Below are positions 17,325 through 56,120 of a DNA stretch of 64,000 bases, in pieces. Numbering within the stretch: the first letter of the stretch is position 1; the number at the start of each line of letters is the position of its first letter. The DNA comes from Octopus vulgaris (taxonomy: Eukaryota): contig OX597821.1 in assembly GCA_951406725.2 (NCBI GenBank), forward strand, positions 91,264,001-91,328,000, written 5' to 3'. A program made the position numbers and the translations under genes. The notes under the pieces are model-generated. The model had not been told where the DNA came from. It saw only the letters and a program-made list of their open reading frames with translations, and searched no databases.

Positions 17325-17503
17325 TAGATCGTTAGCCACTACACACTTTTTTTTCTCTCCTTCTTTTTTCTGTGTCCCTTTCTGTAGAAGAGCGTAGGCT
17401 CGAAACGTAAAACACTTTTTCAATTCCTGTGCGTTATACTAATATATCTGTTTGTTTTGTACACCACCTGTCTTCGTCTTTTGTTTTTTTTCGTAAACTC
17501 TCC
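17325..17503 (+). mobile_element. Dispersed repeat carrying a variant hammerhead motif (17378-17413); probable Penelope-derived pLTR
   Basis: cttt-CTGTAGA-a-GAGC(gtag)GCTC-GAAA-cg-TA-aaac. Six copies in the window. Confidence 0.7.
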
Positions 17504-17517
17504 CTATATATATACAT

Positions 17518-17565
<48 letters not shown>

Positions 17566-18799
17566 CTCATTTTCTTGAGTGACAAAACCATCAATAAATG
17601 GTGGTACCTTTTTGTTTGTCAAGGTTTTTTTCAATTATCCTCAAGAAATTATTCCTGTCTTTAGCATGCATGCAATTACGAAAACTCATTCACAAGCAAT
17701 GAAGATGCTTTTAGGGTTTTTGAAAACAAGTCTTGCTAATCAGAAAGTGTGTTAAAGAACATTTAATATAACCATGCAACGCTAATCAGATGAATGTGCT
17801 TCTGGTCTTCTGCAGCCCAATATTCGTAATTAGATAAGGAGTTCTGTTTTAAGTGTTTTTCAACTCTGTGATGTTCAGAATGAAGCAAAAATATTTCTGC
17901 AGCTTTTATATCTTGAAGGAAATAATCATATTACAGTTCTTTATAGATGTTTTCACATCTAAAGGAGGAATATTAGGCCAGATATTTATTGCCATTTTAT
18001 AGCCAAGTTGAGCTGATTAGAGACATTTTTAGGCATCTTTTGAACCCAATAACATCAATAACATTAGGTATTAACTAAGATCTTTAAAAGCGTGTGAAAC
18101 CTATTTTTATATTGCAACTGTTGATATCAAGCAAGATTTAGCAATTCTTACCTCTTCTTTATTCAGTTATCTGACAGCTGATTGAGTTTTTTTATTTCAT
18201 TTCTTTCCTACATCTGTTTGCTTAAATTTTAAGGCTAAAGTGATTTGAATGACCCACAGATTTACAATATTTTATTTCGTTGTTAATAGGTTAGTGTGAC
18301 ACTCATTTGAATTTGACAGGACAGAACTCAGAAACAGAAGGAAGAAAGCTAATAAATATTGGTTTCAAATTTTTGCACAAAGCCAGCAATTTCAAGGTGA
18401 GGGTAAAGTTGATTACATCAACTCCAGTACCCAGCTGGTTCTTATTTTATTAACCCCTAAAGGAAAATCAAGCAACATAGTCAAACAGTCTGAGCTGGGG
18501 CTCCTTAATCATACCAGTAACAAGATGCATCCCAATTTCTTGGTAGAATCATTGGTGGGATACAAAATCTAAACAATGGCAACCCAAAATTCTACAAAAC
18601 CTCTTGATTCCAAGGGAGTTCAGGTAGCGCCTAAGGGTCCCAGACAGTGTGCAAATCTTAACAAGTATAGAGCAAGACAGGGAGCCCTAAAGACCTAAAG
18701 ATCCAAACCTTTACCTCCTGCACAGATATTGGCAGTTACTAAACACCTTTGTCCAAAGTCTCCACTACTGCACAGCTCATCCAATTATTTTTAATACCT

Positions 18800-19170
18800 C
18801 TATGAATATCAATGCCAAGTTAAGTGAAACAGTCCACACCTTCATTATTCTTTCCTGCAACAGAGACAAATGAGGTGGAATCCTCCAAGAAAGAAGCCAA
18901 CGAAAGACTATATCATTTTCTTGACCCAGGGCACTCTAGGGACAAATGGTACTGCTTTCTCACTCAGTGAAAGAAGGACATTTCTTAAGGCATCCAGAGA
19001 CTCAGCGAGAATAATAGTCATCAGCAAAATCTAGGTCTGCAATCCTAGTTTTACAGCTCAATTGAGCCACCATTCAGCCAAGTATCCAATCCATGCAGGC
19101 ACTGAACCAACACAAAACTCTGGCAGACCCTAAGTCTAACTGAGGAAAAAGTCAAGTATTGACTCAACAT
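18800..19170 (-). mobile_element. Decayed RTE RT-domain fragment
   Basis: The minus strand reads IADLDFADD at about 19015-19043, preceded by a decayed GVRQGCVL..CMDWIL. Confidence 0.7.
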
Positions 19171-19229
19171 CTGAATGTGAATGTGTGTGTGAATGTGTGT
19201 ATGTCTGTGTGTGGTCATATATATATATG

Positions 19230-19365
19230 GGTAAAAATGAAAGGCAAAGACAGGTGGTGTAGACAACAAACAGATGTATTAGTTTAATGTTCAGGAAGTA
19301 AAAAAAGTCTTTAACGTTTCGAGCCTACACTCTTCCACAGAAAGGAACACAGAAACAAACAAGGA
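19230..19365 (-). mobile_element. Hammerhead-motif repeat copy (motif 19309-19344)
   Basis: Reverse complement reads cttt-CTGTGGA-a-GAGT(gtag)GCTC-GAAA-cg-TT-aaag. Confidence 0.7.
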
Positions 19366-20231
19366 TATTTATTTCTATATACATTTCTATATACAAAGTG
19401 AGCATGTTAGAGAGTATTTTTGTCCTAAAATAAGTATGAAGCTATAACCATGGAAAGAGAGACAACATGAATACATCTAACTTCACCAATATTGAATGAT
19501 AACCAACTAGTTGAATCAAGGTTCTTCAGCCATTAAAACTGAGCATTCTCTCTTGATGCTATAATTACTAAATTAATTGAGACAGGGAAAGGCTAGGAAT
19601 GTATTTTTTTTGAAAAATTAGTTATAGCAAGGCTAGAAATATATTTTAATACAGAATTAATTTTCATATGCTTTATTGCTACAGTTCTCATCCTTCTGCA
19701 TCCCTTTCACAAAATGATTTTGTGCAAATTCCCCGACGCATATATTGTAAAGATAAAGATTATTTTAATCAAAGAGAACCTAATTTTGCACAGTGGGTTA
19801 TTATCTAAATTTTCTGTTACTATCCATCCACCATTGGCTTCGTTTTATATAGTTTCATGGATTAATGCTCCCTGTGTCAAATTTTTATGGATATTACAAA
19901 AGAAGGACAAGTATATACATGGAATTACATTGGATCTTGATGCATCATTGGTGATATTTCTACCCACTAATAACACAGTATCCTATTCATATTCTAATCC
20001 CAACAAAAATTATTTTTTTAAATATAATTATTGTACCTGGTTTACATATTTCATTTCTGAATAAAACCTCAATCTCTCTAAATTTTTATAGAAATTACTA
20101 AACGCAAGTAATTATAAAATGAAATTATATTGAACCATTTGTGCTTCATCAGTTATATTTTTACTCCCTTAAAACATAATGCCATACTTGTACTCTAACA
20201 CCAATGCAGATTTTCTTGTAAATGTGCTTAC

Positions 20232-20634
20232 ACAGGAGTGGCTGTGTGGTAAGTAGCTTGTTTACTAACCACATGGTTCTGGGTTCAGTCCCACTGCGTG
20301 GCACCTTGGGCATGTGTCTTCTACTATAGCCTTGGGCCAACCAATGCCTTGTGAGTGGATTTGGTAGACAGAAACTGAAAGAAGCCTGTCATATATGTGT
20401 ATATATATATATATGCGTGTTTGTGTGTCTGTGTTTGTCCCCCTAGCATTGCTTGACAACTGATGCTGGTGTGTTTATGTCCCCGTCACTTAGCGGTTCG
20501 GCAAAAGAGACTGATAGAATAAGTACTGGGCTTACAAAAGAATAAGTCCCAGGGTCGAGTTGCTCGATTAAAGGCGGTGCTCCAGCATGGCCACAGTCAA
20601 ATGACTGAAACAAGTAAAAGAGTAAGAGTAAAAG
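20232..20634 (+). mobile_element. SINE family A, full length
   Basis: caggagtggctgtgtggtaag head, ggttcagtccc B-box-like motif, (agtaaaag)n tail. Confidence 0.92.
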
Positions 20635-22129
20635 GAAAATATTGCTCTTGGTTTAAATGTTTTATTTCTAAAGAAAATCATGACCCCCACTCTCTAAAAC
20701 CCTTGCTGCCCTTTTGTTATCTCACAACATTCCCAGTTACTACCTCCCAGGTTTAAAACCTCTCTTCTATTTTATGATCCTAATTTTCTCATACACTGAT
20801 TTTGAAGTCCACACCAGTGATAAAAGTAAATATGTAAACAACAGGATTGAAATAAATATGTGTTTCTGATTATAACAATTCTATATGATGCTTAATTAAA
20901 TTAAAATTGCTATCCTTTAGTCTTCAGTCAGATTTTAATGATTGGTCATGTGGTTATAACTCCAAATAATTTTATTGTGAGACTAGGACAATATCCTAAT
21001 TCATAATTAATCAAGTTGAGATTTTTACCCCAAACTTCACTAAAATTGCAGAACTTAATTTTTCCATTTATAAAGTTTAATCATTAAGTTATTCTAAGTT
21101 ACTCAATAACTGAAAATTTCATTCTTACTGTTCATCAAGAATTACATGTAATCTGACTGATTCCAAACGACTGTGGGTGAAAAATTCTCATCAATCACAT
21201 TTCTTTAAGACAAGAATCAATTAAAGAACCATCTTGCTAATCTTGTTCACCTCACTATTTATCAAGAACTTTCTTCTGTTCAAAGCTGTCATCAACAACA
21301 TGATATCATATAATTATTGCCACCAATTCAGGAACAATTTAAAATCTAAACATAAAATCAGAAACTGAATCATCATGTCCAATATTTATTTAGTTATTAA
21401 TTACACAGGTGTGTAAATTGCCATATTTTGGTTGAGACTGTGCAATTTGGTGTGAGCATATGTGTCTGATTTTAGTAATACACATTGTGCCTGTGTATGT
21501 ATATGCAAATGTATGTGAGCATTTGATTACATGTGTATGTACATGTATGTTGTTATTAAATGCAAGTCTATATTGTGATAGTTAAGAAGAAAGTCTGAAA
21601 ACCTATGTATGCATATGTGAATTCTTATACATAAATGTGCCTGTGTATATATCTGTGTAAGATTTTATCCATATGCACATAAATAGTGTTATTAAATTCA
21701 AATACACATTGTCATTCATGGATGTATGTACTTGTGCTTGGTGAGAGTGAAATATATATATATATATATGTATATAATGTCTGTCTGTATGTACACACAT
21801 ACACATGTGTGCATACATAAACACATATGTAAACATACACAGACAGATGCATCCATTCATATATGCATACAGACAGACAGACAGACAGGCAATGAGACAT
21901 ACTAGAATGATATTAATAAATAATGGTAGCTTCCACATTATTAGAAGGTAGAAGCATAAGGACAATTCAGATGACCTTTGAGTGCTACATTGTATAACTT
22001 AGACAACATCTGCTGAACAATAAAGAGAGTGGTGCAGATATATCATATATGTATTCAACAGTAAAAGCAACAACATAATGTGATTAAGTGAAGAATTTCT
22101 GAATAAGTAGTCTGAGTGCATGGCGAAAC

Positions 22130-22560
22130 CCTGCTAACTGAGTTTAGATGGACTAACCTGCTTAAACAAATACATGAAGATGAAATAAAGAACAAAATAA
22201 GAATTTTTAATACTAACGTAAAAGCAGTTTTATTGTATGGAGCTGAGACATGGTGAACAACATTTAAGTCAAATAAGCAAATACAATCATTCATCAACAG
22301 ATGCTTGCGTAGTATACTTAAAATTAGATGGCCCGAATACATAAGCAATGTGGAGCTATGGCAAAGAACAAATCAAGTTTCGATTAGGGAGCAAATATTT
22401 AAGAAAAAGTGGAAGTAGATTGGTAGCACAATTAGAAAAGACACACCAAATGTAGCAAAAACTGCTTTACAGGGGAATCCGGATGGATATAGAAAAAAAA
22501 GGTAAGCCTAAGAACTCTTGGCATAGATCAACACAAAAGGAACAAGAGAAAGGACATTCA
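22130..22560 (+). mobile_element. Decayed RTE LINE C-terminal fragment
   Basis: KIRIFNTNVKAVLLYGAETW*..FINRCLRSILKIRWPEYISNVELW. Confidence 0.85.
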
Positions 22561-22614
22561 TGACAGAGTATAAGTACAGAAGCTTATTTATTTGCATTGT
22601 TTTGAATTACTCAT

Positions 22615-22812
22615 GCTTGTGCCATGTAAAAGACACTAAGTCAACTCTTCTGAGTAGTTACTACTAGGAAGGGCAACCAGCTGTAAAAATCCTACCCAAA
22701 CAGTCAGAGTAGTCTGGTGCAGGCTTCTCCCTGGCTGGCTCTTGTCAAATCATCCCACCCATGCCTACATGGAAGGTGGATGTTAAACGATGATGATGAA
22801 TATGATGATGAG
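22615..22812 (+). mobile_element. RTE 3'-UTR fragment
   Basis: ggaagggcaaccagctgtaaaa...gatgttaaacgatgatgatga tail. Confidence 0.6.
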
Positions 22813-23343
22813 GCATTATTTTGGTGGTATAGTTGTATATTTTTAGAATGACATTGTGTGGTAGGTGTGGGAGATGAGATCTCGCTGATTTCAATGCAAA
22901 ACTGGTAGAATATTTAAGCCAGATATGTTTGGTTCAAATACTAAAGGGTTAATGTGGTGAAATATATTTTGGGTAGAAATACATAGGTGAACAACAGTTG
23001 TTTTTGAGAAAAGAAATATTAACAACCAGCTTTAACTGTGTTTATAGGTTTTATAAATACAGCACTTCTGAGATTAAACAATGTTGGTATTGTTTTTTGT
23101 CTGGGGAGAGTCATTCTCTTTTAGTGCTTTATTATTTAACACACTCACTGGTAAAGTTTCCACTCATTTACTTATTTATCTTTCCTAAAATTTTCGTTCT
23201 GAGCTGTGTTCTTTTTGTTTGTTTGTGTGCATGTGCAAGGGGCAGTGTGTGTGCACATACACATGTATGTATGTATGTATGCATGCTTGCATGTAAGTGT
23301 CTGTATGCATGTATGAGTTATTGTTTGTGTAATATAACATGCA

Positions 23344-23595
23344 GTGGAGGCACGTGGCTTAGTGGTTGGGGTGTCAGCACCATGGTCGTAAGATTGTGGT
23401 TTCAATTCCAGGATTGGGCAACACGTTGTGTTCTTGAGCAAAACACTTTATTTCACATTGTTCCAGTCCACTCAGCTGGCAAAAATGAGTAACGCTGCGA
23501 TGGACTAGCGTCCCATCCAGCTGGGGAACATATACACCATAGAAACCGGGCCCCATGAGACTGACTAGGCTTTAAAAGGGCGCATTTATTATTTT
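23344..23595 (+). mobile_element. SINE with B-type tRNA head and alternative body/tail
   Basis: gtggaggcacgtggcttagtggt..gtttcaattcc head, gcgatggactagcgtcccatccagctgggg domain, aaaagggcgcat tail. Confidence 0.85.
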
Positions 23596-24001
23596 TAATA
23601 TACCATACAACAACAAAAATAATAGTTTGATATATACTCTGATGACATCAGATTCAAAACATGCCAAACAATGGGAAGTTGGCTGCTTACAGAGTGTCGT
23701 ACAGATATGAAACATCTTGTAAATATTTTTAGCTAACCTTTATATAAAAGGACAAGTCTGACTTCAGTGGGATTTTATTTCTGAAAGTAAAGAACACGAT
23801 TCCATATTATAAGTATTTTTACTGCCATGCTATCACTTAGGTTCTGTTCACAAACTTTAAGCTTTATATAATGTTAGGTTTTATGTTGATCAACCATGAG
23901 AAGACAAAATGATCAATGGTTTATATGAAGGGTAGATCATCTCTATCCTATCGATTCTGATGACTGTCCTTATCTATAGCATTACTTCAATGGCATTTTC
24001 A

Positions 24002-24043
<42 letters not shown>

Positions 24044-24485
24044 GCACACACACACACACAAAGATACATTCACATACATATATACATACATATATACAAA
24101 CGTGCATACATACATATATATAAAAAGGGAGTTATGTATATAAAGAAATGTCTTTCAGATTTATGGTTTCTTTGGGATCAGCTTCAACTTGCATTCTCTG
24201 AGGGTAAATTATCATCTGTAATGTACTGGGTTTAATATGTTTGTCTTATACAACTTCATCTTACGGACAAATCCTTTTGATGAGTCAATTACAAATTTTA
24301 TTGATGCCTTACTAATTCTATGTAAATAAATGCCATACTAATTCTGTGTCAGATGATTCATATTAAAGCTAATCTTACTTCATCCGCATCTCTCTCCTAT
24401 CATTACCACTTCATCTTCCTTTCTTTCTCCATCTTTTTCTGCCTTCTTTTACTCATACACTTTTTCCCTTCTGCTCTGCTTAGAA

Positions 24486-24527
<42 letters not shown>

Positions 24528-25545
24528 TCTCTCTCTCTCTCACTCACTCTCTCACTCTCACTCTCCCTCACACTCTCTCAATCATTCTCTCTTTAATATA
24601 CTGCCTCCTATTGGCTCTGTTTTTCAGAGATATTTATTCCCTCTCTCACATTTATTCTCTTACTCTCTCTCACTCTCTCAGTCATTCAATTACCTTTTCC
24701 TTTTCTTTTACTCAGTTTTCTCTCTTCTCCGTTACAACTGGGTGAAGTTTCTCATATAACGCTTGGTTTCCCTCCATTGGTATGTAACTAGCGCCATTCT
24801 TCATAAGACAAACAGTTAAATACTAAAACAAAAAAAAAACACAAAAGCCAAAACAAAAAACACAAACACTCAAAAGCCAAAAACAGACAGTTATATTAAA
24901 GAAATCCAATTGATTAATATCTTTTAATCTAAAACATCTATTCCCAGAATATTTTCTTCATCTGACGATATTATGACAAGATGAAATAAATTATACCACC
25001 AGGATTTTATAACAGAGGCTTTTCAAAAAAGAAATATGAAGTCTTCTATATATTCTTCTTATGATTTTTTAGCCGCCTCTTTGTCTGTTCCAACAATAAC
25101 AGCAACCGATTCTAGGTGCCCTTTCTTAACCTTTATGCCACTTTATGAAACCACTGCCAGTAACTACGCACCAACTGCTAAATAAGGATAGTCGCTAGAA
25201 TTGGCACAATGTGTTGGTCTTTATCAGCTTGAAATATATTGGATATAGAAATGAAAGAAGTGTATGCTGTTGTACCAAAAGATGAGGTAGAAATGAAATA
25301 AATTGGTGCAAGCTTTGTGAAGCATTATGAAGAGGTTCCATTTTCTGATGGTGATGAACTTTACCAAAAATTGTTGGTTGCAACTTTAGTTTACAAAACA
25401 TCAACATACTTTTGTTATCTAAAACTATGTTAGGCAAAACGTAGAGTTTTTATGTCTCTATTTTAATTTCTAAAAATAGTGACTGAATATTCCCAAAATT
25501 CCAGGACATCACCAACGAGTGAAAAATACGTAAACACACAACGAG

Positions 25546-26429
25546 GTCGATCGTTTCCGTATGTCCACTCTGGTGTCGTTTGTTCGTTCAAAGCCCTAAC
25601 TCTCCACAAATTTTATATTTTTTTAAATTTCTGGATGCTGCTGTCTTATGACGTTTTCCTGTCTTGTCACAAAATAGGTAGTCATAAACAGTCGACAACT
25701 AAGGAAGAGTTAGACTTCTTTTGGTAGTTTGTCCCGTCCCGTACTTTCTCTCGTTGTCTGTTTATGTATTTTTTGTTCGTTGGTGATGTACTGTACTTAA
25801 TATGTATCATTTCATTTTTATTTAATAGTTGAATGCCACGCAGCCTTTGTCAGCAATAAGTTTTTACATTTATATATAATTTCTGTGATTTTGTTCTCTA
25901 CCTACTTTTTTTCTCTCTCTCTCTATCTCTCTCTTTCTCTCCCTCATAATCCTCTATATTTCTTTTTCTCCCCTCCTTTGCTGTTACTCGTCTGTCTTTT
26001 TTCATTCTCTAACTTTCTTTCCTTCTCCCTTCTCCTCCTTCCCTTTATTTATTTCCCTCATCTTCTTTCTTCTCCCCTTCCCCTTTGCTTGTTGCTCATA
26101 CATCACTACAGGCCATTTTTCTCATCTCTGTCTTTTCTAGATGGAACGTCCAGCAAGCCGGACGTCATTTCCCTCGCCTCTCGATATCTTATCTTTTCTC
26201 TTTTCTATGTTTTCTCTTCTATTTATTCTATATCCTTTCATTCAAACTTTCTCCCAGGCATTACCCATTACAATTCGTCTTGGCCTAACGGCCCTAAACC
26301 TCTGTCTTCGTCGATCATTTCTGTACGACCACTCTGGTGTCGTTTGTTCATTCAGAGCCCTAACTCTCCACAAATTTTATATCGTTTAAATTTCTGGATG
26401 CTGCTGTCTTATGAGGTTTTCCTGTCTTG
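25546..26429. repeat. Pair of about 120-bp direct repeats 764 bp apart
   Basis: 25546-25666 vs 26310-26429 (ccactctggtgtcgtttgttc..ctggatgctgctgtcttatga). Confidence 0.85.
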
Positions 26430-27172
26430 CCGATAGTGGAGTTGAGTCAAACTGTCATTAAATACATATAATTCCAAGTAAACATATTGAGAGTTACTTT
26501 CATACATTCTTTCGTTTGTTTTTTTCACTCACATGCACATATACATACACGCATATACACATGCATACACATACGTATGAGAATATGCGTGTTAGTATGT
26601 GCGTGTATGTTTATGAAGTAACGACCGTATACCGATACACATATAAACTAATTGTGCAAACGCCTATATGCCAACATAATCTCGTGTCTTCATATACGTC
26701 TTAGTTTTATGTCCTAATTATTTAACCCCGTATATACATATACGCACATATGCACTTGGGGCAATACATAATAGTATTTTTTGGGATTATAATTATTCAG
26801 TAACACCTCAACTGATTTCATTGAATAAGATTAAACAAAATGATACGTACGTTTAAATCATCAAAATATTTCGGTATATTTATTTTCATTAGAAATTTTG
26901 TCTCATGATTAAGCTGCTAGCTTGCAAAGGAATCACATGTGCTATTTTGTAGTAGGTAGGACTCCACTTACTTTGTAGCTCAGCCAGAAATAGAAGTGGT
27001 ATTAAAATGTCTAACTTGCCAAAGTAAAAGTGTATGCAAGGATAGGGCATTCTCTTAGGTTCAAACATACTTTTATCGATTTTCCTTCAAGTACACACGG
27101 GCACACTCATACATATATGAATTATGTAAAATACGCACACACATATATATACACACATGCATATATATATAC

Positions 27173-27208
<36 letters not shown>

Positions 27209-27788: not shown

Positions 27789-27826
27789 TGTGTATATGTG
27801 TGTGTATATACATATATGTATGTATA

Positions 27827-27877
<51 letters not shown>

Positions 27878-27878
27878 G

Positions 27879-34506: not shown

Positions 34507-34615
34507 GCCCCGGTGGCACAATCGGTTAGCGCGCCGTACTTATAGACAGTATCTTTGCCGTGCGAGTCACGGATGAGCAATGCGGAGGTTGTGAGTTCGA
34601 ACCTCACCCGGGGCA
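34507..34615 (+). tRNA. tRNA-Ile-TAT: tRNA-Ile(UAU) with 35-nt intron (34545-34579)
   Basis: Acceptor stem GCCCCGG/CCGGGGC+A, D arm GCAC..GCGC, anticodon stem CCGTA/TGCGG, anticodon TAT at 34541-34543, intron at canonical 37/38, T arm GTGAG-TTCGAAC-CTCAC. Confidence 0.95.
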
Positions 34616-37533: not shown

Positions 37534-37540
37534 TATATAT

Positions 37541-37691
37541 TTCTCTCCTTGTTTTTTTCTGTGTATCTTTCTGTGGAAGAGCGTAGGCTCGAAACGTAAA
37601 AGACTTTTTCTATTCCTGAGCGCTATACTAATACATTTGTTTGTTTGTACTCCACCTGCCTTCGTCTTTTATTTATTTTCGTAAACTTTAC

Positions 37692-37695
<4 letters not shown>
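37541..37695 (+). mobile_element. Hammerhead-motif repeat copy (motif 37566-37603)
   Basis: tcttt-CTGTGGA-a-GAGC(gtag)GCTC-GAAA-cg-TA-aaaga. Confidence 0.72.
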
Positions 37696-39309: not shown

Positions 39310-41312
39310 TCCAGTAATAAATATGTTATGACTTATTAGGAACGTCTCACAAGTTCTTATTTTTCCTGTCGTTTTACGTACAAGATGGTGAACCCTCGTT
39401 CTCGCATGCAATTGTAAAATTGTAGGTTCTCACATACTAACATCACTACAAAATGGTAACCCTGACGTTAGAATACGATAGCCGCTACAAAATAGTGAAC
39501 TCAAATTTTGAATACGCTAGCTACTACATAATGGTGAACTTGACGTTTGAATACGCAACACATGGTAAACCGACGCCGTGCTACACTCTTTAAGGTAATT
39601 TCTACAGTACTCTACCAGCACCTCTGATATTCTAGTTTTGAAATAATTTCGTGTCTTCCGCGTCAAAGAAGAAAGTCCACTTATCAGGCCTGTTCTTTGT
39701 CATAAAATAATGCGTCTCCATTCAACTGAACAAGCATACACGTGAACATCCTGTGCTCCGCTGGAAAAGCGTGTCATAATCATAAGTAACACTTCCGTAT
39801 CAGTTTATCATGGTAATGCTAAGCTACGGTTTGCACAGCTTGATTCATACTTCGCAGCACATGGTATACAAGCCGCTCAACAAAAGCTACACGTGCTTAT
39901 TAGTGGCATTCCCGCCATTTTAGCAGACACCGTTTAAGATATCATCACAGATCGTCCACAAGGCATGACCTATGATTCTTTGAAAACAGAAGTACTACGC
40001 AGAAATTCTAAATCATCAGAAAGCCGATTCCGTGCATTGTTACAGGATGAGAACCTGGGTGAGAGAACTCCTTTGGGATTTCTTAGACAGATGGGAGAAC
40101 TCAGTGACGATCCACCTAAAGGCAGCTTCTTCGTAAAAATATTTTTTCCCCCGCTTACTAACTAATGTACAGACGATATTGGCAACTATGGTTGACACCA
40201 GCTCTATAGACCAAATCACTTCATCTGCAGATAGGATAATGGAATTCTCTCACAGACCCACCGCGGCTGATTCGGTTATTGCTTCATCATCTTCTCAACA
40301 ACATCCTGATACTAAAAATGGAGACGCCATGTTGAAGGCTATCAATGGTTTAACGCGCCAAATAGCTCGATTCTGTCGTGTTAGACGGCGTTCGCGAAGC
40401 CAGTCTTTCTCTTCTCAACTACGCAACAGTTTTTCAACCAACAATTCTTCGGTATGTTCGTACCACGCACGTTTTCACGACAAGGCACGTCATTGTAAGA
40501 AACCTTGTGCTTTTAAAGTGTTGAAAAACTGAACCTAGAGAACCTGGGAACGTCAGATCTCTCTCACAACTTTTCAGCTAATCGTGCTTTTTTCATTAAG
40601 GACCTAGTCTCAAACAGGTTGTCCATGATCGATACAGGATCAAGTTGCAGTATTTTGCCATTACGGTTCAGCTCTAACAAGCCACAGTTATCCAGTATTT
40701 CCCTATACGAGGTGAACCAGTCTCCCATCAAAACCTACGGTCAGATATCTTTAACTCTAGACCTTGACTTGCGTCGAGATTTCAAATGTATTTTTGTCAT
40801 CGCCGACCTGCCTCATCCTATTCTCACCGCGGACTTCTTACACTATTATTCACTCCTGATAGATGTCAGGAAACAGAGACTTGTGGACACTACCACATCT
40901 TTATCTACGCCTGCTACGTGAATCTACCGCTGCTTTCCTCAGTCAATCACTTTTTGTACTTGCTGCCAGTAGCCAGTTCCAGATTTTTTTTTTGCCTCGT
41001 TTCCCGAGTTAACACATCTCTCATTTAAGCCTACCCAGACGGTTCACTCGAGTCAATATTTTATTACAACTAGTTCACTCGTTTTCTTTCGTCCACGTAG
41101 ATTAGCACCAGACAGGCTCAAGAAGGCCCGCGCTGAATTCGAGCACATGTTCCAGCTCAGTCTTATACGTCCTTCTACTAGCCCAGCATAATTAAGGAGT
41201 GAGTCCTTATCTTTTTACCGCTTCGTATACGATATCTCAACTATATCAGTATCATGTTGGTTCAGATTTTTAAATCTAGAGAAAGGTTATTTGTTTGAAA
41301 TATTCTATTCAT

Positions 41313-44505: not shown

Positions 44506-44583
44506 TGTATCTTTCTGTCGGAGAGCGTAGGCTCGAAACGTAAAAGACTTGTTCTATTCCTGAGCGCTATACTAATACAATTG
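44506..44583 (+). repeat. Exact 78-bp copy of the hammerhead-motif segment at 45363-45440
   Basis: Identical, including the private CTGTCGGA core variant. Confidence 0.9.
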
Positions 44584-45309
44584 ACATGCGTGTAGATTAA
44601 ACAACAGAAAAATTTTGAAATTAAGCTAGGTGTTCGTATTAAAATAAAAGCTTCAAAACACCATAACGATAGCGGCGGCTGCTGACCATTTTTTTCCCCA
44701 TCAATAGGAGGTATTTTTTAAAACAGTTTTCACAGCTCTTCTCCTGCATTTGAGATTTTTTTTAAATATTGTAAGCATATATAAATATACGTGTTTGGTC
44801 GTGCATTTGTGAGTGCTTGTGCGTGCGTGTGTATGTATATAGATAGATAACTACACACACAGGCATGCATATATATATGTATCCCCTCTTTCTCTCTGTT
44901 TCGCTGCTCACACATGACCATCGTTTATCTTTCTTTTCCTACACGTACATTCAAAAGAACAGACATGTTATTTTCTTTCTCTTCTATCTTCACTCTTTTC
45001 CTCTCGTTCTGGTCTAACGACCTTCCATGTTTGTTTTCGTTCGGTTTCCTTGTATGTCTTCACTGTCATGTTTTTGTTATACCTATATACTCAACAATGC
45101 AGCAGTTACTCTATGAAGGAGTCCCTAATTTGCATACCGAAAGTGATTAACACTATAAATACCAGCAGCCTATCAACGGGGGTCTTAGGAAAGGGAAAGA
45201 ACAGAAAAAAGAGAACCGAGCTGTGGAAAACATAAGCAAAAAAATTCCAAAGCTTTCTATAAATTCGCAAAGGAAACAGTCACAATACAATATGAAATAG
45301 GACGCCATG

Positions 45310-45495
45310 ATAGATCGTTAGCTCCTACACGCATTTTTTTTTCTCTCCTTGTTTTTTTTTTGTGTATCTTTCTGTCGGAGAGCGTAGGCTCGAAACGTAA
45401 AAGACTTGTTCTATTCCTGAGCGCTATACTAATACAATTGTTTGTTTGTACTCCACCTGCCTTCATCTTTTGTTTATTTTCGTAAACTTTCCCCT
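45310..45495 (+). mobile_element. Hammerhead-motif repeat copy
   Basis: agatcgttagc..tcttt-CTGTCGGA-GAGC(gtag)GCTC-GAAA-cg-TA-aaaga..cgtaaactttccc. Confidence 0.72.
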
Positions 45496-45896: not shown

Positions 45897-46313
45897 ACTC
45901 TTTTACTCTTTTACTTGTTTCAGTCATTTGACTGCGGCCATGCTGGAGCACCGCCTTTAATCGAGCAAATCGACCCCGGGACTTATTCTTTTTTTTTTTG
46001 TAAGCCCAGTACTTATTCTATCGGTCTCTTTTGCCGAACCGCTAGGTAACGGAGACATAGACACACCAGCATCGGTTGTCAAGCAATGCTAGGGGGACAA
46101 ACACAGACACACAAACAAACACACATACATATATAAATATACATATATACGACAGGCTTCTTTCAGTTTCCGTCTACCAAATCCAGTCACAAGGCATTGG
46201 TCGGCCCGGGGCTATAGCAGAAGACACTTGCCCAAGATGCCACGTAGTGGGACTGAACCCGGAACCATGTGGTTGGTTAGCAAGCTACTTACCACACAGC
46301 CACTCCTGCGCCT
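45897..46313 (-). mobile_element. SINE family A, full length
   Basis: Reverse complement of family A. Confidence 0.92.
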
Positions 46314-46627
46314 GTGTGTTTGTGTATGTATCTAGAAATTCTCTATAAGTCTTTCGAGGTCTTGTGACTAATGAAAAACTGCTATTATTTAAGGCTTCGC
46401 ACAGTATCCAAAACCGTGAAGTTGTTGAGTGAAGATATTGTGTCTACCTGGGCTTTGTACTGTTTGTCAAGTCACAACAAGGACCTCAGACAGACAGTAC
46501 TTAACGCAATATGCATGCAATTTCAACCAAGTAAAGCCGATTTTTTGCAATACACCTAGATTGTAGGGTATTTCTAAAGTTTCCAGATGTTTCTTCAGGG
46601 TGGGTGGTATTGAATCCAATGCTCACT

Positions 46628-46834
46628 GTGAGCTGGCAGAATCGTTAGGACTCTGGATGAAACGCTTAGCAGCATTTCGTCCGTTGCTACGTTCTGAGTT
46701 CAAATTACGCTGAGGTCGACTTTGCCTTCCATTCTCTTGGGGTCGATAAAATAAGTACCAGTTGAGTAATGGAATCGATGTAATCGATTATCCCCTCTCC
46801 CAAATTTCAGGCCTGGTGCCTATAGTAGAAAGGA

Positions 46835-46907
<73 letters not shown>

Positions 46908-47135
46908 GGTGACAGGCTGGCAAAATCGTTAGGACGGTGGACGAAATGCTTAGCGGTATTTCGCCAGTCGCTACTCTCCGACTTTAAATTCGGCCGAGGT
47001 CGATTTTGCCTTTCATTCTTCCGGGGTCGATAAAATAAGTACCAATTGAGTACTGGGGTCGATGCAATCGATTAGTCTATACCGCGCGCAAATTTCAGGC
47101 CTTGTGCCCTATAGTAGAAAGAATTATTATTATTA

Positions 47136-47202
<67 letters not shown>

Positions 47203-49188
47203 TATTATTATTATTATCATCATTATTATTATTACATTCCAGATTTTTACGTCCTGTGTTGAAATCTCGCCGAGGTTAACTTTCATCCTTATCATGGTAG
47301 TGTCGTTAAAAATAAAGACATCAGTGAAATACTGGGATCAGTTTAATCTACTAGCTCATTCTCCACACAAGATTTTCTTGTTCCTTATGCCTATGTAAGA
47401 AACCTATTTATTTAGTGCTGCTTTTAAAAGACATCTTGCTAAACCTTTACATGTTTTTTTTTCTTCTTTCTATTGACTATGCGGCCTGAACAGCAGCTGG
47501 CTGACAGCAGAATAAAGAAGGATTGGTAGAATAAAGATATTGCAAGGAGCGGAGCAGAGCAGTATAAGAAATGTGTATGATATAAAGGTTAGTGAGATGG
47601 GAGGATAAACACCGGTTTGAAAATTGGCCAATCTATCAAGATAATAGTGCAGTTTTGGAACGATGCAAAAGAAAGAGTTCACTTATAACAGTTTCAAAGT
47701 CATCATCAATCACACGAGCTTGTGGTGGCAGTAGTTACGGTAGTTGTGGTGGCTGTGGTGGTCGTAGTGGTTGCGGGGTAGGTATCAGTGTTGGTAGTGA
47801 TGGTGGTGGTGGTTGTGGTTGTGGTGGTGGAGGTGGTGGTGGTGACAGTAGTGTAGCAGGTAGTAGTGATGGTAGTCATGTTGTGGTGGTAATAAAGGCA
47901 GCAAGCTTGCAGAATCGTTAGTACGCCAGGCAAAATGCTTAGCGACATTTCGTCCGTCTTTACGTTCGGGGTTCAAATGCCACGGAGCTCGACTTTGCCT
48001 TTCATCCTTTCGGGGTCGATAAAATAAGTACCAATTGAGTACTGGGGTAGATTTAATCAACTAGCCCCGCTCCTTGATTATTAGGAGTAATGGGAAGGCA
48101 GCGAACTGGCAGAATTGTTAGTATGCCGGACAAAATGCTCAGCGAGCGACATTTCGTCCGTCTTCACATTCTAAGTTCAAATTCCGTCGAGTTCGACTTT
48201 GCTTTTCATCCTTTCAGAGTCGATAACATAAGTACCAGTGGAGCGCTGATAGCGATGTAAACGATTCTGGTGGTGATGGTCGTGGTCGTCGTCGTGGTAA
48301 TGGAATTAATGACTGTAATGGTGTTTTAGTGGCAATATTAGAGTTAGTATATTAGAGTAGGCAGCGAGCTGGCAGAAACGTTAGCACGCCGGGCGAAATG
48401 CGTAGCCGTATTTCGTCTGCCGTTACGTTCTGAGTTCAAACTCCGCCGAGGTCGACTTTGCCTTTCATCCTTTCGGAGTCGAATAAATAAGTACCAGTTA
48501 CGCACTGGGGTCGATATAATCAACTTAATCCGTTTGTCTGTCCTTGTCCTCTCTGTGTTTAGACCCTTGTGGGTAGTAAAGAAATAAATATTAGAGTCAG
48601 TAGTGGTAGCGGTGGTAGTAGAGGTTGTAGTGAAAATAGAGGTGCTTGTAGTGGTCGGAATGATTATGACAGATACTCTCGTTGGTAATAAGTATGGAAG
48701 TAAAAACAGCAGAGATGCTGATGGGGCATTAGTAGTGATACAATCAATACTGTTAAGGCGGCGAGCTGGCAGAAACGTTAGCATGCCGGGCGAAATGCGT
48801 AGCCGTATTTCGTCTGTCGTTAGGTTCTGAGTTCAAATTCCGCCGAGGTCGACTTTGCCTTTCATCCTTTCGAGGTCGATAAATTAAGTACCAGTTACGC
48901 ACTGGGGTCGATATAATCGACTTAATCCGTTTGTCTGTCCTTGTTTGTCTCCTCTGTGTGTAGACCCTTGTGGGCAGTAAAGAAATAAGAAACATTAGCA
49001 CACCAGACGAAATGCTAATCGGTATTTCGTTTGCGCTACGTTCTGAGTTCAAATTCCACCAGGGGTCGACTTTGCCTTTCGTCCTTTCGGGGTCAATTAA
49101 ATAAGTACCAGCTACACACTGGGATCAATGTAATCAACTTAACCCCTACCCCCAAATTTGAAGCCTTGAGCTTCCAGTAGAAAGGATT
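46628..49188 (+). mobile_element. Co-oriented cluster of at least 7 SINE C copies separated by (ATT)n and (TGG/TAG)n tracts
   Basis: Copies at about 46628, 46906, 47896, 48096, 48359, 48756 and 48991, plus a fragment near 47255. Confidence 0.88.
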
Positions 49189-49674
49189 CTAGCAATACTG
49201 ATGACAGTTGGTGACTTTAGTTGTATTAGTAGTGTCAATGATAGTAGTAGTAGTAGGAGAAGGAGGAGTAGTGGTGGTGGTGGTGGTGGTGGTGTTGGTG
49301 GTGGTGGTGGTGGTGGTGGTGGTAGTGGTAGTAGTAGTTGTAGTAGTAGTATATGCGATTGTGTTACTGTGAACCAGTGGCATGACTAGACTGTCAGCCG
49401 TCGCTTCTAGCAAGAAATGGAAGGAATAAAAATATGCACAACAACAGCAAGCTATGATCTCCTATAATCATTAGTATTCGATGTATAATCCAACCGTTTG
49501 GATTCGTCATACTTTATCAAATGACCGGAAAAAAAATGTTGTCCATGTGAGTATGCGAAGGTGACGGAGTTAAATCATGGGATAAGTCATAAATGGTATC
49601 TGTATTTTAGATACAAGAACACTCCCTCTCCCTCTCTCCCATCTCCCCTTTCTCTCCCCTCCTCCCTCTCTCTC

Positions 49675-49716
<42 letters not shown>

Positions 49717-50401
49717 TGCATTTAAAACTGTGTCATTAAAATAACTGTTTTGCTACGCAAAGAGATTCCAAGTATGTTAACATTGCCACCAAAAGTATTA
49801 AATTTTACATATGACTTCTGGCATCGACTAAACTGGATTTTGTATTTTCCACCTGCTACGTGGCGTCAACGGTGTTGGTTGCGGTGGTGACGACAGCGGC
49901 GTCGGTGGTGATGTCTATGGTGCTGCTGGCCATGATGGTTGCAGCCGTGGTGGTAGTGGAACCATTTGTGGTCGTCGTTGTCATCGTGGTAGCTATCAAT
50001 CTTCTGGGCGAATCAAAATATGTTTCCAATAATTTTTTTCTCAAAATGGCAGATACTGTTCGTTAGTTGCAGCTCCTGACACCTGTGTCACTGTTTTCTT
50101 TTATGAAGTGCTGGGATTTGAACTCAGAGTGCACAGAGCCAGTGTAACAGATACACAAAGGCACCCCCATTCAAATTTCTAATAATTTCACCAATCCATC
50201 ATCCTGGATTGATATTTCTTTGCTGTTTATTTTTTCCTTTTTCTTTTCTTTTATATTAACCCCCGAAAGAACCACTGGCAGGATTTGAACTCAATGTGCA
50301 GAGAATTCAGAACAAATACCATGAAACTTCTATCCAACACTTTAACAATTCTGCCAACTCACTTCCAAAACCACTGCTATATGAATGCTTATTTAACTAC
50401 A

Positions 50402-50691
50402 GTGGAGGCGCAATGGCCCAGTGGTTAGGGCAGCGGACTCGCGGTCGTAGGATCGCGGATTCCCAGACCGGCGGGGTTTATTGAGATTCCCAGACCGGGC
50501 GTTGTGAGTGTTGTACTCTTTGGGCCGGCCTTGTCACTCTCTGTGTCACGCTGAATATCCTCGAGAACTACGTTAAGGGTGCACGTGTCTGTGGAGTGCT
50601 CAGCCACTTACACGTTAATTTCACGAGCAGGCTGTTCCGTTGATCGGATCAACCGGAACCCTCGTTGTCGTAACCGACGGAGTGCTTCCAC
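50402..50691 (+). mobile_element. SINE family B, internally rearranged
   Basis: 12-bp TSD tatttaactaca (50390-50401 / 50692-50703). gattcccagaccgg is duplicated and the body is deleted. Confidence 0.9.
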
Positions 50692-50922
50692 TATTTAACT
50701 ACATTGTAACACAATATTTCTTCTTACATATCACAATTAAAGAATGATAACGTCAGTAGATATAAGTTCCTATAAGCTAATCATTGGTTCACTGTATTTC
50801 TATGGTGATTTAGAAGTGTTTGTACTTCAATGTGGAACAAATATCGCAAGGGATTCATTTATAAAGCACTGTTCTTTTTGCTTTTATTTCTCTTGACAGT
50901 GTTTATATACTTCTATTAATAT

Positions 50923-51239
50923 CACCATCACCGATTCACCGTGACCGACCAGGCTATCAGATGTTGCTACACATCGCTGGTCACAATGCGCTTCGCATTG
51001 TTTTTAGCCTTCAGATGACGTCACCCCGCTGGCTAAGCGAGCGGGCCAACAGAAGAAAGAGTGAGAGAAAGTTGTGGCAAAAGAGTACAGCAGGGACTGT
51101 CACCAACCCCTGCCGGAGCCTCGTGGAGATTTAGGTGTTTTCGCTCAATAAACACTCACAGCGCCCGGTCTGAGAATCGAAACCGCGATCCTACGACCGC
51201 GAGTCCGCTGCCCTAACCACTGGGCCATTGCGCCTCCGC
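50923..51239 (-). mobile_element. SINE with B head and a third type of 3' tail
   Basis: 14-bp TSD acttctattaatat (50909-50922 / 51240-51253). Confidence 0.9.
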
Positions 51240-51457
51240 ACTTCTATTAATATATTATGCATTATCTATGTGTATAACTCTTGCTGATATATGCAAAAGA
51301 TGCACTCTTACAAACATATAGTAGGAACAAAGCCAAACAGCGATGGAATTAAACATGCAGCAAGTGTTTTCGAAGTGAATCTGTTAACCACACAGGCATG
51401 TCTCTGACCATATAATGTCCACCGACAATACTATCATATACTTCCTTATTCACAAGT

Positions 51458-51826
51458 GTGGAGGCGCAATGGCCCAGTGGTTAGGGCAGCGGACTCGCGG
51501 TCATAGGATCGCGGTTTCGATTCCCAGACCGGGCGTTGTGGGTGTTTATTGAGCGAAAACACCTAAAAAAGCTCCACGAGGTTTCGGCAGGGATGCTGCT
51601 GTACTCTTTCTCTCACTCTTACTTCCTGTTTCTGTTGTACCTGTATTTCAAAGGGCCGGCCTTGTCACTCTCTGTGTCACGTTGAATATCCCCGAGAACT
51701 ACGTTAAGGGTACACGTATCTGTGGAGTGCTCAGCCACTTACACGTTAATTTCACGAGCAGGCTGTTCCGTTGGTTCGGATCAACCGGAACCCTCATCGT
51801 CGTAACCGACGGAGTGCTTCCATCCC
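51458..51826 (+). mobile_element. SINE family B
   Basis: B head and tail; imperfect TSD tattcaca(a/t)gtg. Confidence 0.9.
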
Positions 51827-52254
51827 ATATTCACATGTGATTAACATTTTCCTTCCAAGATACGACAATAATACCCTTATGACAATGAGCCAACGAGGAA
51901 AATCTCAACGTGGATGATTGACCTTCTAGAAATAGCAACCAAATCACTCCAGATTCATATTCTACTATTTTTTGAATAGAAAAATAATAAAAGGTTTGTT
52001 GAATAATGTAGTTGGAAATGTATCAACATTATCCGTTATTTAGGAAAAGTCAGCATGGTCCTGGTTGAAATGCCTTTAATTACACGTCTACTAAATAGGG
52101 TGTTACAGAACAATAACAGCAATAACAAGAATTCCGAAAAATATAATTCATATATCTTTTCCATTCACTGAACAACACAATAAATCATTTGAAATTATTT
52201 CCTTGACATATAACACATACATCCCCCTACACACACACACACACACACACACAC

Positions 52255-52640
52255 AAATGGGTTGTACCAAAAATAATGCAAAAGTGGGAATCATTTATTC
52301 ATTAACTAAAATAAGTTGTTAAAACAACATATATTTGTAGAGTAACTTTTCCTCTGCGGTAGCTTTTTCTGTCTGTTCTTTTTCATTGCAGGCATCTTGC
52401 ACGAATCGCTGGACAAGGGGTCAAACTGATTCGCACGGGCAGACGACTAACAATCCGTGAGCTTACTGCACAACTGGAGTGTAATCACAATGTATTACTG
52501 AAGATGGTGAAAGAGAAAATATATACAAACGGAGTAGACCGGCAGTTAACACTGAATTTGAAGGAGTGAAGGGTAGAAGTCAGCTCAAATATATCGGAAG
52601 CGTTTAAAACCAATGACGACAGTTAACTATCTTCTAAGTT
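52255..52640 (+). mobile_element. Decayed mariner 5' fragment
   Basis: LIRTGRRLTIRELTAQLEC..RQLTLNLKE*RVEVS matches the mariner second HTH and WVPRxLT linker region. Confidence 0.65.
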
Positions 52641-52655
52641 GGTTCTAAGTGTATA

Positions 52656-53045
52656 GTGGAGGCGCAATGGCCCAGTGGTTAGGGCAGTAGACTCGCGGTC
52701 ATAGGATCGCGGTTTCGATTCCGGGCGTTGTGAGTGTTTATTGAGCGAAAATACCTAAAAGCTCCACGAGGCTCCGGCAGGGGATGGTGGTAATCCCTGC
52801 TGTACTCTTTCACCACAACTTTCTCTCACTCTTACTTCCTGTTTCTGTTGTACCTGTATTTCAAGGGGCCGGCCTTGGCACTCTCTGTGTCACGCTCAAT
52901 ATCCCCGAGAACTACGTTAAGGGTGCACGTGTCTGTGGAGTGCTCAGCCACTTACACGTTAATTTCACGATCAGGCTGTTCCGTTGATTCGGATCAACCG
53001 GAACCCTCATCGTCGTAACCGACGGAGTGCTTCCATCATCCATCA
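52656..53045 (+). mobile_element. SINE family B
   Basis: 12-bp TSD tctaagtgtata on both sides; (catc) tail. Confidence 0.92.
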
Positions 53046-53171
53046 TCTAAGTGTATACATATCTGTAAACACACTGAAATGTATGAATACAAACGTACAT
53101 ATATACATGCATACATGCTCATACCTACACCCACATGTACTCACTCACAAACTCACAAATACTTACACAAA

Positions 53172-53380
53172 TATTAGCTTCAAATTTTGGCACAAGGCCA
53201 AGCGGAGGAGATAAGTAGATTACATCGACCCCAGTGTTCAACTGGTACTTATTTTATCAACCCAGAATGTATGAAAGGCAAAGTCGACCCTGGCGGAATT
53301 TGAACTCTGAACGTAAGGACGGACGAAAAACGACATTGCATTTTTCCTGGTGTACTGACGATTCTGTTAGTTCAACACCT
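53172..53380 (-). mobile_element. Diverged SINE C
   Basis: gaaaggcaaagtcgacc..ggaatttgaactc. Confidence 0.75.
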
Positions 53381-53989
53381 TTGCATACACAAATATTAAT
53401 ATCAATAATGAAATTACTTATTCCGTCGCAAATCTCCAGAAATCTTTTATCACTTCTTCCTACAAATACCCAATGATAATTGAATAAAGTTTAATTAGCA
53501 ATATTTTTGATAACCCCCAATTATACTGTGAACTAGAAGTATTTTAAGCAATTCTCTTGTAAGCTTTGATAGATATTATATAAATGCTAATATCGTTGTA
53601 AGATTTCTAAATACCATAAATATCATTTTCCTCATGTGCATTGTAATCCGATTTCATTGTGAGATTTTGTTATTGATATTAACAAGAATCAACAATTTAG
53701 CTGTGAATTCCTTTTCAACGTTGTTTTACAAAATATGCAACTTGTTTTATATTAAGTCTGGAAGAAGTGTTTGGTCGCTTGGCTTTTGCAAAGCCTTTGA
53801 GACAAGAAAGACTGAAAAAGTTGTTGTTGGTGTCATTTTTTGTTTATCCTAGGCCAACTCATATCAGCCAACACATATCAGGCAGACCTTACCTTCTTGG
53901 TTAAAACCCATAAAGTATTTGAAATAGATTTGGTGGCTATTTCTAGCTGGTCAAACGCCTGTTTAGAGTTTTCTTAATTATATTATAAT

Positions 53990-54187
53990 ATTGGCTTAAA
54001 AATTTTGACACAAAGCCAGCAGCTTAAGGGGAGAGGGTAAGTCGATTAAATCAACCCAAGTTGAGCACTGGTACTTATTTTATCGATCTTGAAAGGTAAA
54101 GTCGACCTCGACAGAATTTCAACTCGGAATGTAAAAACAGACAAAATGCGGCTAAGCATTTTGCCCGGTGGGCAGCTCGCCACCTTA
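53990..54187 (-). mobile_element. Diverged SINE C
   Basis: ggtacttattttatcga..cagctcgccacctt. Confidence 0.75.
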
Positions 54188-55144
54188 GTTATATTGTAGT
54201 ATTAAATAGTATAGAAAATGTAGCATATACCGAAAGAAGGTAGAACTACATTAGATGTCCAGATAAAATGTATTTACCACTGTAGTTGTTGAAATGACTA
54301 CAGAGCAAATGACAAATGTACTAAATATGCTCGTGGTTATATCATTGCACTGGTAGACCAAGCATACAGTGAGTTTACTGAGCTGAACATTATAATGTGC
54401 TAGTATCTTCAGAAGTATTTTATACGATATAAGATTTATATCTCTATCACAGTACCTTACATTTATAAATAGGAGAGAAAAGGTGAGAAAGACGAAAATA
54501 TTATTAAAGCATGCATACCTGTCAATGATTGCAATGATAAAGTGTTGAAGTCAGTGACAAAATATCAAAACAAATTACTGAACTGAATTTCTTCGCCCAC
54601 CTAAACTAAAGATATTTCGTTGAATCTATAATCTTTTATCAAGTAATCTTTTAACAGCTACTTCATCAACATCTGTTCAACGTCATCCACCACGCATATT
54701 GACGTACACTTACATTGATACATAGATACTTACATACTGAATACATTTATGCATGTAGGTATCTGAGTGTAATATGTACGAAGTAAGGAGTTCTATTTCT
54801 CAAGTCTGGTTGACCAAATTCACTTAGGTTCTCACTGCTCCAACATACCAACCACGCATATAAGCATATTTTCATGTATGTACACATTTATATATAAAAT
54901 GTGCGTGCAGGAATTAGTGACAGGATGTATACATGTAGGTGTGTATATGCAAACACAGACACACACATATATACACATATATACACACTTATATGCTTAC
55001 ATATATACAACATATATTTATACATTTATACATACATGTGATTTTATATAACACATATTTTATGTATATACAAAAATATATATATATATACAAATATATA
55101 TATATATATATGTTGTCGGCAAAGCATAAATCTGAAAAATAAGC

Positions 55145-55635
55145 ACACACTAAGTTATGGAGCAGTATATAATTTAAATAAAGTTAGATAAAGTCGGTTT
55201 ATGGGATTACCCTGGGTTTCACGTCCATTAAGCGTTTAGCTTTACAGCATATCATCAGATCCCAAAACCTGTTGGCTTAAAGCCTCTCTAGCGAGTTGCT
55301 TCTCTAGAATATGGAGGAGGAAAGGACCACGCTACTCAATGTCAGCAACAGATGATTGTCTCCCTTTGGCTGTCGATCGCCAGTGACCCGTTATCCTGTG
55401 GGTTCCAATAGGCCAGCAGGAATTTCTTGAAATGCAAGCACGGACCGAAGACCTTCGTTCTGGAGTTAAGGGTGTTCCCCGGGTCGAGGGAGTCCTTTAG
55501 AATCCTCGCCCGTTCCGCTGTGCATAATTTACAGCGCTTGGATTCGTTTATGTAGGTGCCTGAATTTTCTAGGATTCTTCATGACATTGTGTATGGAATC
55601 CCGTCGTCTTTCAGCTGCCATACATAAGATGAGTC
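55145..55635 (-). mobile_element. Penelope-like element 3' end: GIY-YIG endonuclease C-terminus plus pLTR
   Basis: SSYVWQLKDDGIPYTMS*RILENSGTYINESKRCKLCTAERARIL..LNSRTKVFGPCLHFKKFLL matches the recalled PLE motif W.LK..W.IL...Y...KRC.LC..E..LN.R.E....C.H..K. Confidence 0.85.
55202..55264 (-). ncRNA. Type-I hammerhead ribozyme motif in the PLE pLTR
   Basis: UGGGAU-CUGAUGA-(long imperfect stem II with inner AAGC/GCUU hairpin)-GAAA-CCC a GGG-UA-AUCCCA. 6-bp stem I, canonical core, GUA triplet. Confidence 0.8.
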
Positions 55636-55684
55636 TGCTATAATGAATCCATACATACAAAATATCCAAGGTGTATATTTTTTC

Positions 55685-55750
55685 CCCTCTGCTGGGGAAT
55701 TTAATATTTACTCAATATTTATTGAGTAGTAATTGAAACAGCTGTAAGGG
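55685..55750 (+). ncRNA. Degenerate hammerhead motif (another PLE family)
   Basis: CCCU-CUGCUGG (decayed CUGAUGA)-stem II with tactcaat/attgagta-GAAA-CAGCUG-UA-AGGG. Confidence 0.5.
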
Positions 55751-55964
55751 ATGATGATTAATTTGCTGTTAGTAGCAAAAAATTAGTAACTCTCCAATCT
55801 CCATTTTCTTTTACTTTTATATGAATAGAAACTATATGTTTTTATATATATACCTATTATTTTAAGGAAATTAATTTCCCCAAAATTCTAGGTATTGAAT
55901 CAGTATTTCCTTGGACGAAACCATCCCTTCATGAGGTTAACACAATCGAGTACTTATTTACATT

Positions 55965-56120
55965 TTTTATTTTCTCTCCCTGTTTATTTCTGTGTTACTT
56001 TCTGTCTAAGAGCGTAGGCTCGAAACGTAAAAGACTTTCTCACTTCCCGTGCGTTAAACTAATACATCTATTTGTTGTTTACACACCCGTCTTCGTCTTT
56101 TGTTTTTTGTAAATTCTCAC
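55965..56120 (+). mobile_element. Hammerhead-motif repeat copy (motif 55998-56033)
   Basis: cttt-CTGTCTA-a-GAGC(gtag)GCTC-GAAA-cg-TA-aaag. Confidence 0.7.

Follow-up and report, generated by a model that had tools for sequence, protein, structure and literature searches.

Hammerhead motifs in Penelope-like elements and related systems

Minimal hammerhead ribozymes (min-HHRs) of metazoan Penelope-like elements (PLEs) lie in the pseudo-long terminal repeats (pLTRs) of these elements and, according to Cervera and de la Pena (2014, PMC4209133), cleave weakly as dimers. Here we describe motifs of this kind in a 64,000-nucleotide stretch of Octopus vulgaris DNA (contig OX597821.1, positions 91,264,001 to 91,328,000; the window in what follows), in which core position 6 is U (T in the DNA) instead of A. 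The min-HHRs described in that paper share with the octopus U6 family a U-rich leader, a short stem I, an extra nucleotide after A9, the G10.1-C11.1 pair, a palindromic stem III of the form GAAA-C-G-U-H, one motif per pLTR and thousands of truncated solo copies, and the motif of an Acropora Neptune element has nearly the same 4-bp stem II. All 56 representative motifs in its Fig. S3 have A6, which the search descriptor required, and the only core variant among the motifs presented there is U3-A8; in the octopus family U6 is the source state.

The Neptune clade of PLEs, as described by Craig et al. (2021, PMC8557442), likewise has one open reading frame (ORF) encoding a reverse transcriptase (RT) followed by a C-terminal GIY-YIG endonuclease (EN), a CX2-5CxxC linker, (TA)n targets, partial tandems and inverted copies; a motif search of its supplement did not find the U6 family. 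Position 6 is also substituted in the natural A6C hammerhead of phage Bcep176, which cleaves slowly in Mg2+ (PMC3088659; PMC7151607), but this is C rather than U, a single phage sequence, favoured by Mn2+ and not part of a high-copy retroelement. The pLTR hammerhead of the anole Poseidon PLE (Frangieh et al. 2024, PMC11167929) lies, as here, upstream of an internal RT start, and its main template is reported to be uncut RNA. It differs in clade and in having a core that is canonical as described; the anole ORF overlaps the motif, whereas that of the U6 element starts about 720-780 nt downstream of it. Animal non-LTR retrozymes are PLE-related and also carry type I hammerheads (bioRxiv 10.64898/2026.07.22.740005; PMC7229834), but they are non-coding tandem monomers, whereas the U6 family is coding and has dispersed truncated copies, which sets it apart from them.

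Our literature search, which did not extend to Lunse et al. 2016, turned up A6C as a natural variant but neither a natural A6U nor an account of the U6 family. The Lunse study reportedly describes PLE hammerhead variants and may already list U6.

Six motifs in the window

Hammerhead-type motifs are present at all six places named in a preliminary description of the window (C3 of the core at 17382+, 19340-, 37571+, 44515+, 45372+ and 56002+), and all six have T at position 6, as it had reported. The core pattern matches the window six times and gave no match in 100 shuffles. Every motif is located inside a repeat of 78-190 nt with a common 3' tail, and a TA-rich microsatellite stands at or beside the repeat end in five of the six copies. 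The identity of the repeats given below is almost certain, for reasons set out in the next section.

17320..17504, + strand: c1, 5'-truncated 3' end of a Neptune PLE of the N7=A subfamily, beginning at the 5' hot spot, with (TA)n at its end
17378-17413, + strand: c1 motif, predicted cut after 17409 (GUA)
19228..19365, - strand: c2, 3' end of the same Neptune PLE, N7=G subfamily, GUU
19309-19344, - strand: c2 motif, predicted cut after 19313
37536..37694, + strand: c3, PLE 3' end with (TA)n on both sides
37567-37602, + strand: c3 motif, predicted cut after 37598
44506..44583, + strand: c4, 78-nt piece with both ends cut, identical to c5; motif at 44511-44546 with private A9G
45303..45495, + strand: c5, PLE 3' end with its start at the hot spot CGCCATG and (ACAT)n after it
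45368-45403, + strand: c5 motif with private A9G
55964..56120, + strand: c6, PLE 3' end, N7=C subfamily, (TA)n end; motif at 55998-56033 with private G8U

The single-base stem exceptions noted earlier in two copies were recovered as AAAC instead of AAAG in stem I of c1 and GAGT in stem II of c2. The reported variation at positions 7-9 stands for N7, whose differences follow subfamily; U8 (c6) and G9 (c4 and c5) are private changes and not source states. The predicted cleavage triplet of c2 is GUU rather than GUA, and GUU is also found in the youngest intact elements. Since c4 is a 78-nt duplicate of c5, 100% identical and including the private G9, it is likely, on sequence identity, a local duplicate rather than a separate insertion, and the window holds about five independent insertions. 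Local density is high, with six copies in the 64-kb window versus six in the flanking 400 kb. An Rfam scan of the window gave no hammerhead among the matches listed (150 of 211, E<=5).

The element behind the repeats

Longer copies extend upstream into a pyrimidine-rich 3' untranslated region (UTR), then a GIY-YIG domain with a CX4CxxC linker, then an RT with YIDD. The genome (2.8 Gb, 227 contigs, the scope of all genome-wide counts below) was searched with the element protein, which gave 115 scored matches at 92-100% identity, 112 of them stop-free. The motif lies downstream of the protein match in 27 of the 30 loci read, with T6 in all 27. Nineteen long loci were examined. Twelve are two-motif copies with motifs 4,444-4,580 bp apart, and the full-length element is about 4.5 kb; the other seven are a tandem (L123) and six loci with one motif. 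CTGTTGAA with GUU occurs in both pLTR motifs of all 12 elements, whose pLTRs have 0-4 mismatches over 370 nt. Six complete ORFs of 1,064-1,080 aa differ by 0.28-0.73% (0.45% apart).

The 1,080-aa ORF has RVT_1 at 454-643 (E=1.4e-7) and the YIDD and YIGQT motifs. Its GIY-YIG match at 874-907 is below the Pfam cut-off (E=0.0066) and improves to E=4e-4 with the EN piece alone. A single ORF with RT and C-terminal GIY-YIG identifies an EN+ PLE, and partial tandems forming pLTRs, each with a hammerhead motif, are also characteristic. The zinc finger of the RT-EN linker, CSRPRCRTC, has Neptune-type spacing when compared by eye with the rows of Fig. S2 in PMC8557442, and the RT N-terminal and EN regions are, again by eye, closer to the Neptune1_Ap and Neptune1_Nv rows shown there than to those of Nematis or Poseidon. 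(TA)n adjoins the 3' end in most loci read, as in the microsatellite targeting of Neptune elements. The closest public proteins are about 52% identical to the element protein. In a quick tree of 45 of 75 rows of homologues, the U6 lineage and a sister lineage form a clade (SH-aLRT 100), the Neptune references having been compared by eye. The element is placed in the Neptune clade by the order of its domains, its linker, its (TA)n targets, the partial tandems and its resemblance, judged by eye, to Neptune rows. Because the terminus of the window repeats is the pLTR of coding full-length elements, the window copies are 5'-truncated 3' ends, almost certainly of an autonomous Neptune-clade PLE. 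The link to PLEs drawn in the preliminary description is thereby supported, and the search it proposed for an autonomous PLE sharing this terminus succeeded, with an intact ORF and 12 two-pLTR elements.

At the tandem junction in the upstream pLTR of four copies (L113, L114, L116 and L117), the tail runs into a short TATATAT, after which comes a 600-nt pyrimidine-rich 5' UTR; the start of reverse transcription therefore mimics a (TA)n target. Through slippage in the 3' UTR, the position of the ORF stop shifts (1,064-1,080 aa). Inverted pairs of PLE ends, head-to-head or tail-to-tail, occur at L002, L025/L026, L042 and L241/L242, and some of their ends stop about 40 nt past the cut site rather than at the main 3' end.

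Copy number and position 6 in the genome

The core pattern with five free bases has 17,638 exact matches and its reversed control none; with six free bases it recovers 16 insertion variants. T6 is present in 96 of 100 listed core matches. When A6 is demanded, 209 of the 17,638 exact cores remain, and the 30 that were read spread over all N7 subfamilies; the A6 copies are scattered as expected of decay after insertion. A pattern of the tail alone has 20,437 matches. In the first 30 of these loci, 27 copies extend as far as position 6, every one of them with T there, and 12 match the core exactly, giving a rough figure of about 44,000 copies from two patterns that are not independent. Altogether, T6 is found in 132 of 139 copies not selected on position 6 (base counts exclude insertion-variant loci, loci selected on A6 and loci selected on altered stems). 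Every intact copy examined has U6, which is also the source state in each of the six subfamilies; the family therefore lacks the canonical CUGANGA core with A6. The preliminary description had proposed a high-copy family with U6 as its consensus, and these counts agree on both points.

An A6 master subfamily was considered and is ruled out, since A6 copies occur in all subfamilies and U6 in all intact copies read. U6 as a genome-wide host trait is likewise ruled out: a search for canonical-A6 motifs gave 14,465 matches (control 16), versus 133 U6 motifs with another stem II, and U6 is thus specific to the lineage. In contigs of four organisms, only T is listed at position 6 of the young element, but the table also missed known N7 variation and is therefore weak evidence. 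The 5' UTR of the young U6 element is about 99% identical in the four (runs X1, X6, X15 and X18); that of the young sister element is covered in only two of these runs, and such contigs show presence, not absence. The element is young, intact and very successful, with a core change invisible to CUGANGA descriptors, which suggests that published genomic hammerhead counts miss large families.

Conservation of the motif

The U6 lineage consists of six subfamilies with median divergence of 0.017-0.15 and flank distances up to 0.32. By the calibration quoted in PMC13282606 (0.09 for 25 million years), the oldest would be some 35-40 million years old, if that calibration is applicable to the octopus host. 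Among the six subfamily consensuses, two of 35 motif columns vary, versus 50 of 124 flank columns (Fisher p=6e-5). The varying motif columns are only N7 (U, C, G, A) and H17 (A, U; C in the sister lineage), and no consensus has G at H17. As summarized in PMC4075628, citing earlier work, N7 is a spacer, H17 can be anything but G, and U4C is natural. The same paper gives costs of more than 100-fold for changes at C3, G5, G8, G12, A14 and A15.1, and of 10-100-fold at A6, A9 and A13. Fixed changes are thus confined to tolerant positions, the pattern expected if the chemistry is selected but slowed.

Stems I and II, G10.1-C11.1, the palindromic minimal stem III and an NUH site (GUA, GUU or GUC) are all present, which is the minimal type I hammerhead architecture originally proposed. 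In the stem alignment 98% of 104 cells are paired, and stem I has a compensatory C-G/G-C change between the U6 lineage and its sister; the loss of stem pairing, which the preliminary description had named among the grounds for abandoning its interpretation, was not observed. No altered-stem subfamilies were found in the tail-selected or contiguous samples, the pattern searches being of a kind that would miss them. One lone distant copy (L094:1505, + strand) has A6, a GUAG loop, GAAACGGU and a different tail, and is a possible outgroup to the U6 lineage.

The sister lineage and other hammerhead families

One A6 family has stem II and tail blocks in common with the U6 family. This sister lineage has 12,917 exact copies, with C4 in 74 of 100 listed and U4 in 24 (counted by eye). 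It is also autonomous, with a unit of about 6 kb and a 949-aa ORF that has 68% amino-acid identity to the U6 element.

L343-L362, e.g. L346:2422-2462, + strand, and L344:1421-1461, - strand: young sister elements, core CCGACGA (U4C), GUC

In L344, a full-length young copy, both pLTRs carry U4, whereas C4 is found in relatives nearly identical to it. U4 together with A6 occurs in older subfamilies of the sister and in the coral Neptune motif, so A6U and U4C are each likely derived. A pairing of a downstream YGAGCG with stem II was considered and not adopted, being weak in five of the six U6 consensuses; in the sister it is strong (probability 0.4-0.98, mid-length folds).

A further family with a canonical core (L134-L161, L283-L312) has stem II GGCUG/CAGCC with a long loop; its 5' start is fixed and lies next to (TAA)n, and it has two 3' ends. 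In several of its copies there are fold-back inversions whose junction is at the predicted cut site or close to it, which may be a relic of cleaved templates. The genome thus supplies natural controls, namely U6 with four N7 bases, a U4/C4 sister and an unrelated canonical family, which bear on whether PLE hammerhead cleavage is needed, tuned down or abandoned.

Copy ends and predicted folds

Only 139 candidate copies genome-wide start within 8 nt of the predicted cut site. Of 30 that were read, 9-10 start at -2..0 and seven at -7..-3, and 13 are indels. The control family with a canonical core has 170 cut-site candidates and, likewise, no clear peak; the test therefore has little power, and neither shows nor excludes cleavage. 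A 5' hot spot was found instead, 17 of 55 copies starting within 10 nt of CGCCATG, 70-90 nt upstream of the core; these ends were taken from local alignment to the longest copies and may be biased. In the sister lineage, where the hot spot is TTCAAAATG, nearly all of 30 copies chosen by their 5' part end no more than a few bases from it. The sharp hot spots of both lineages are candidate transcription starts.

The minimum-energy fold of the motif is a closed rod (-10.8 versus -8.4 kcal/mol for the bare hammerhead stems). Families with a canonical core also fold into closed rods, in other registers, and the rod is not unique to U6. A dimer cofold gave a duplex of mixed pairings with no clean double hammerhead and was uninformative.

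Function of the motif

We favour, with a probability of about 0.6, the reading that the motif is an ordinary PLE minimal hammerhead under selection, attenuated but still slowly self-cleaving. The RT would begin copying at a fixed point of the RNA, some 95-110 nt beyond the motif, and would usually stop early, often at the hot spot that lies 70-90 nt upstream of the core. The templates would nearly all be uncut, because the copies run through the cut site. U6 is predicted to pair with A15.1 in the closed rod (U4-G5-U6-N7 with A14-A15.1-C-G), which would disfavour the active fold, and cleavage would then need a second copy, through the palindromic ACGU stem III, or the element's protein. The natural A6C hammerhead offers a precedent for slow cleavage with position 6 substituted. 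The anole PLE hammerhead is reported to cleave in vitro only with the element's protein, and RT there starts internally, downstream of the hammerhead (PMC11167929). A more tentative extension, which we consider rather doubtful, is that both sister lineages independently detuned the CUGA turn at its two tolerant positions (A6U, U4C) because uncut leader RNA is the needed template. The U6 pair would lock a closed off-state to be opened by the element's protein or a second copy, and the abundant copies of 200 nt would represent strong-stop-like cDNAs, made from the internal RT start as far back as the transcription start.

A number of results weigh against a functioning ribozyme, and many of them suit the possible, though less probable, alternative that the motif of the same element has lost catalysis and is retained as a fold or sequence to which the RT/EN protein binds for template selection or for positioning internal initiation. 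There is no genome-wide excess of U6 copies starting at the cut site. Loop II (GUAG) is likewise invariant, and invariant blocks of up to 15 nt occur in the flank, including the tail, so part of the conservation may be due to sequence-specific binding. Altered U-turns have kept neither sister lineage from thriving, stem I of the youngest sister subfamily contains a U-U mismatch, and the closed rod is predicted to exceed the hammerhead stems in stability. Insertion of the anole PLE in vitro was not impaired by mutating the hammerhead (PMC11167929), and catalysis is thus dispensable there. Fold z-scores are modest (-2.2 for a young copy, -0.3 and -1.4 for two window copies), the covariation is a single event, the N7/H17 pattern was noticed after the fact, and saturation mutagenesis in PMC9901934 is described as giving low activity for all CUGA-region mutants except the C3-G8 swap. 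A dead motif, however, need not spare C3, G5, G8, G12, A14 and A15.1 while N7 changes at least four times, need not avoid G at H17 in every consensus, and need not confine its changes to positions reported as tolerant. Nor is the rod itself the conserved thing, since N7=A, C or G removes a rod pair. The choice left by the preliminary description, between an attenuated ribozyme and a retained structure, is upheld, the former being preferred.

Conservation at the DNA level, as part of an internal pLTR promoter in which the hammerhead is a relic, would fit the location of the motif, since the hot spot that may mark a transcription start (17 of 55 copies) lies 70-90 nt upstream of it, and the Penelope promoter is described as internal and TATA-less (PMC2377424). 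We regard this as improbable, because the compensatory change in stem I, the N7/H17 pattern and the same core with different stems in an unrelated family of this genome all point to RNA structure. Even less is to be said for the non-autonomous, retrozyme- or SINE-like family (SINE, short interspersed nuclear element) that had been suggested at the outset. Most copies are indeed about 200 nt and many have a common 5' start, and short transcripts of solo ends might still be re-copied in trans. Yet 11 of 55 copies continue into the 3' UTR or ORF, no tandem monomer arrays occur among the loci read, and full-length elements with an intact RT-EN ORF carry the U6 motif and this terminus in both pLTRs, which refutes it as the main explanation.

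Other features of the window

The window also contains a 52-bp tandem satellite at 4791-6243 (28 copies, 82% matches). Remnants of reverse transcriptases of the LINE (long interspersed nuclear element) type were recognized from translations at 2620-3486 (+), 12936-14325 (-) and 63478-63834 (-). A remnant at 40137-40921 (+) presumably resembles the gag-protease region of LTR retrotransposons. The tRNA-like Rfam match at 34507-34615 (+; 50.8 bits, 109 nt) is perhaps the head of a tRNA-derived SINE or an intron-bearing tRNA.

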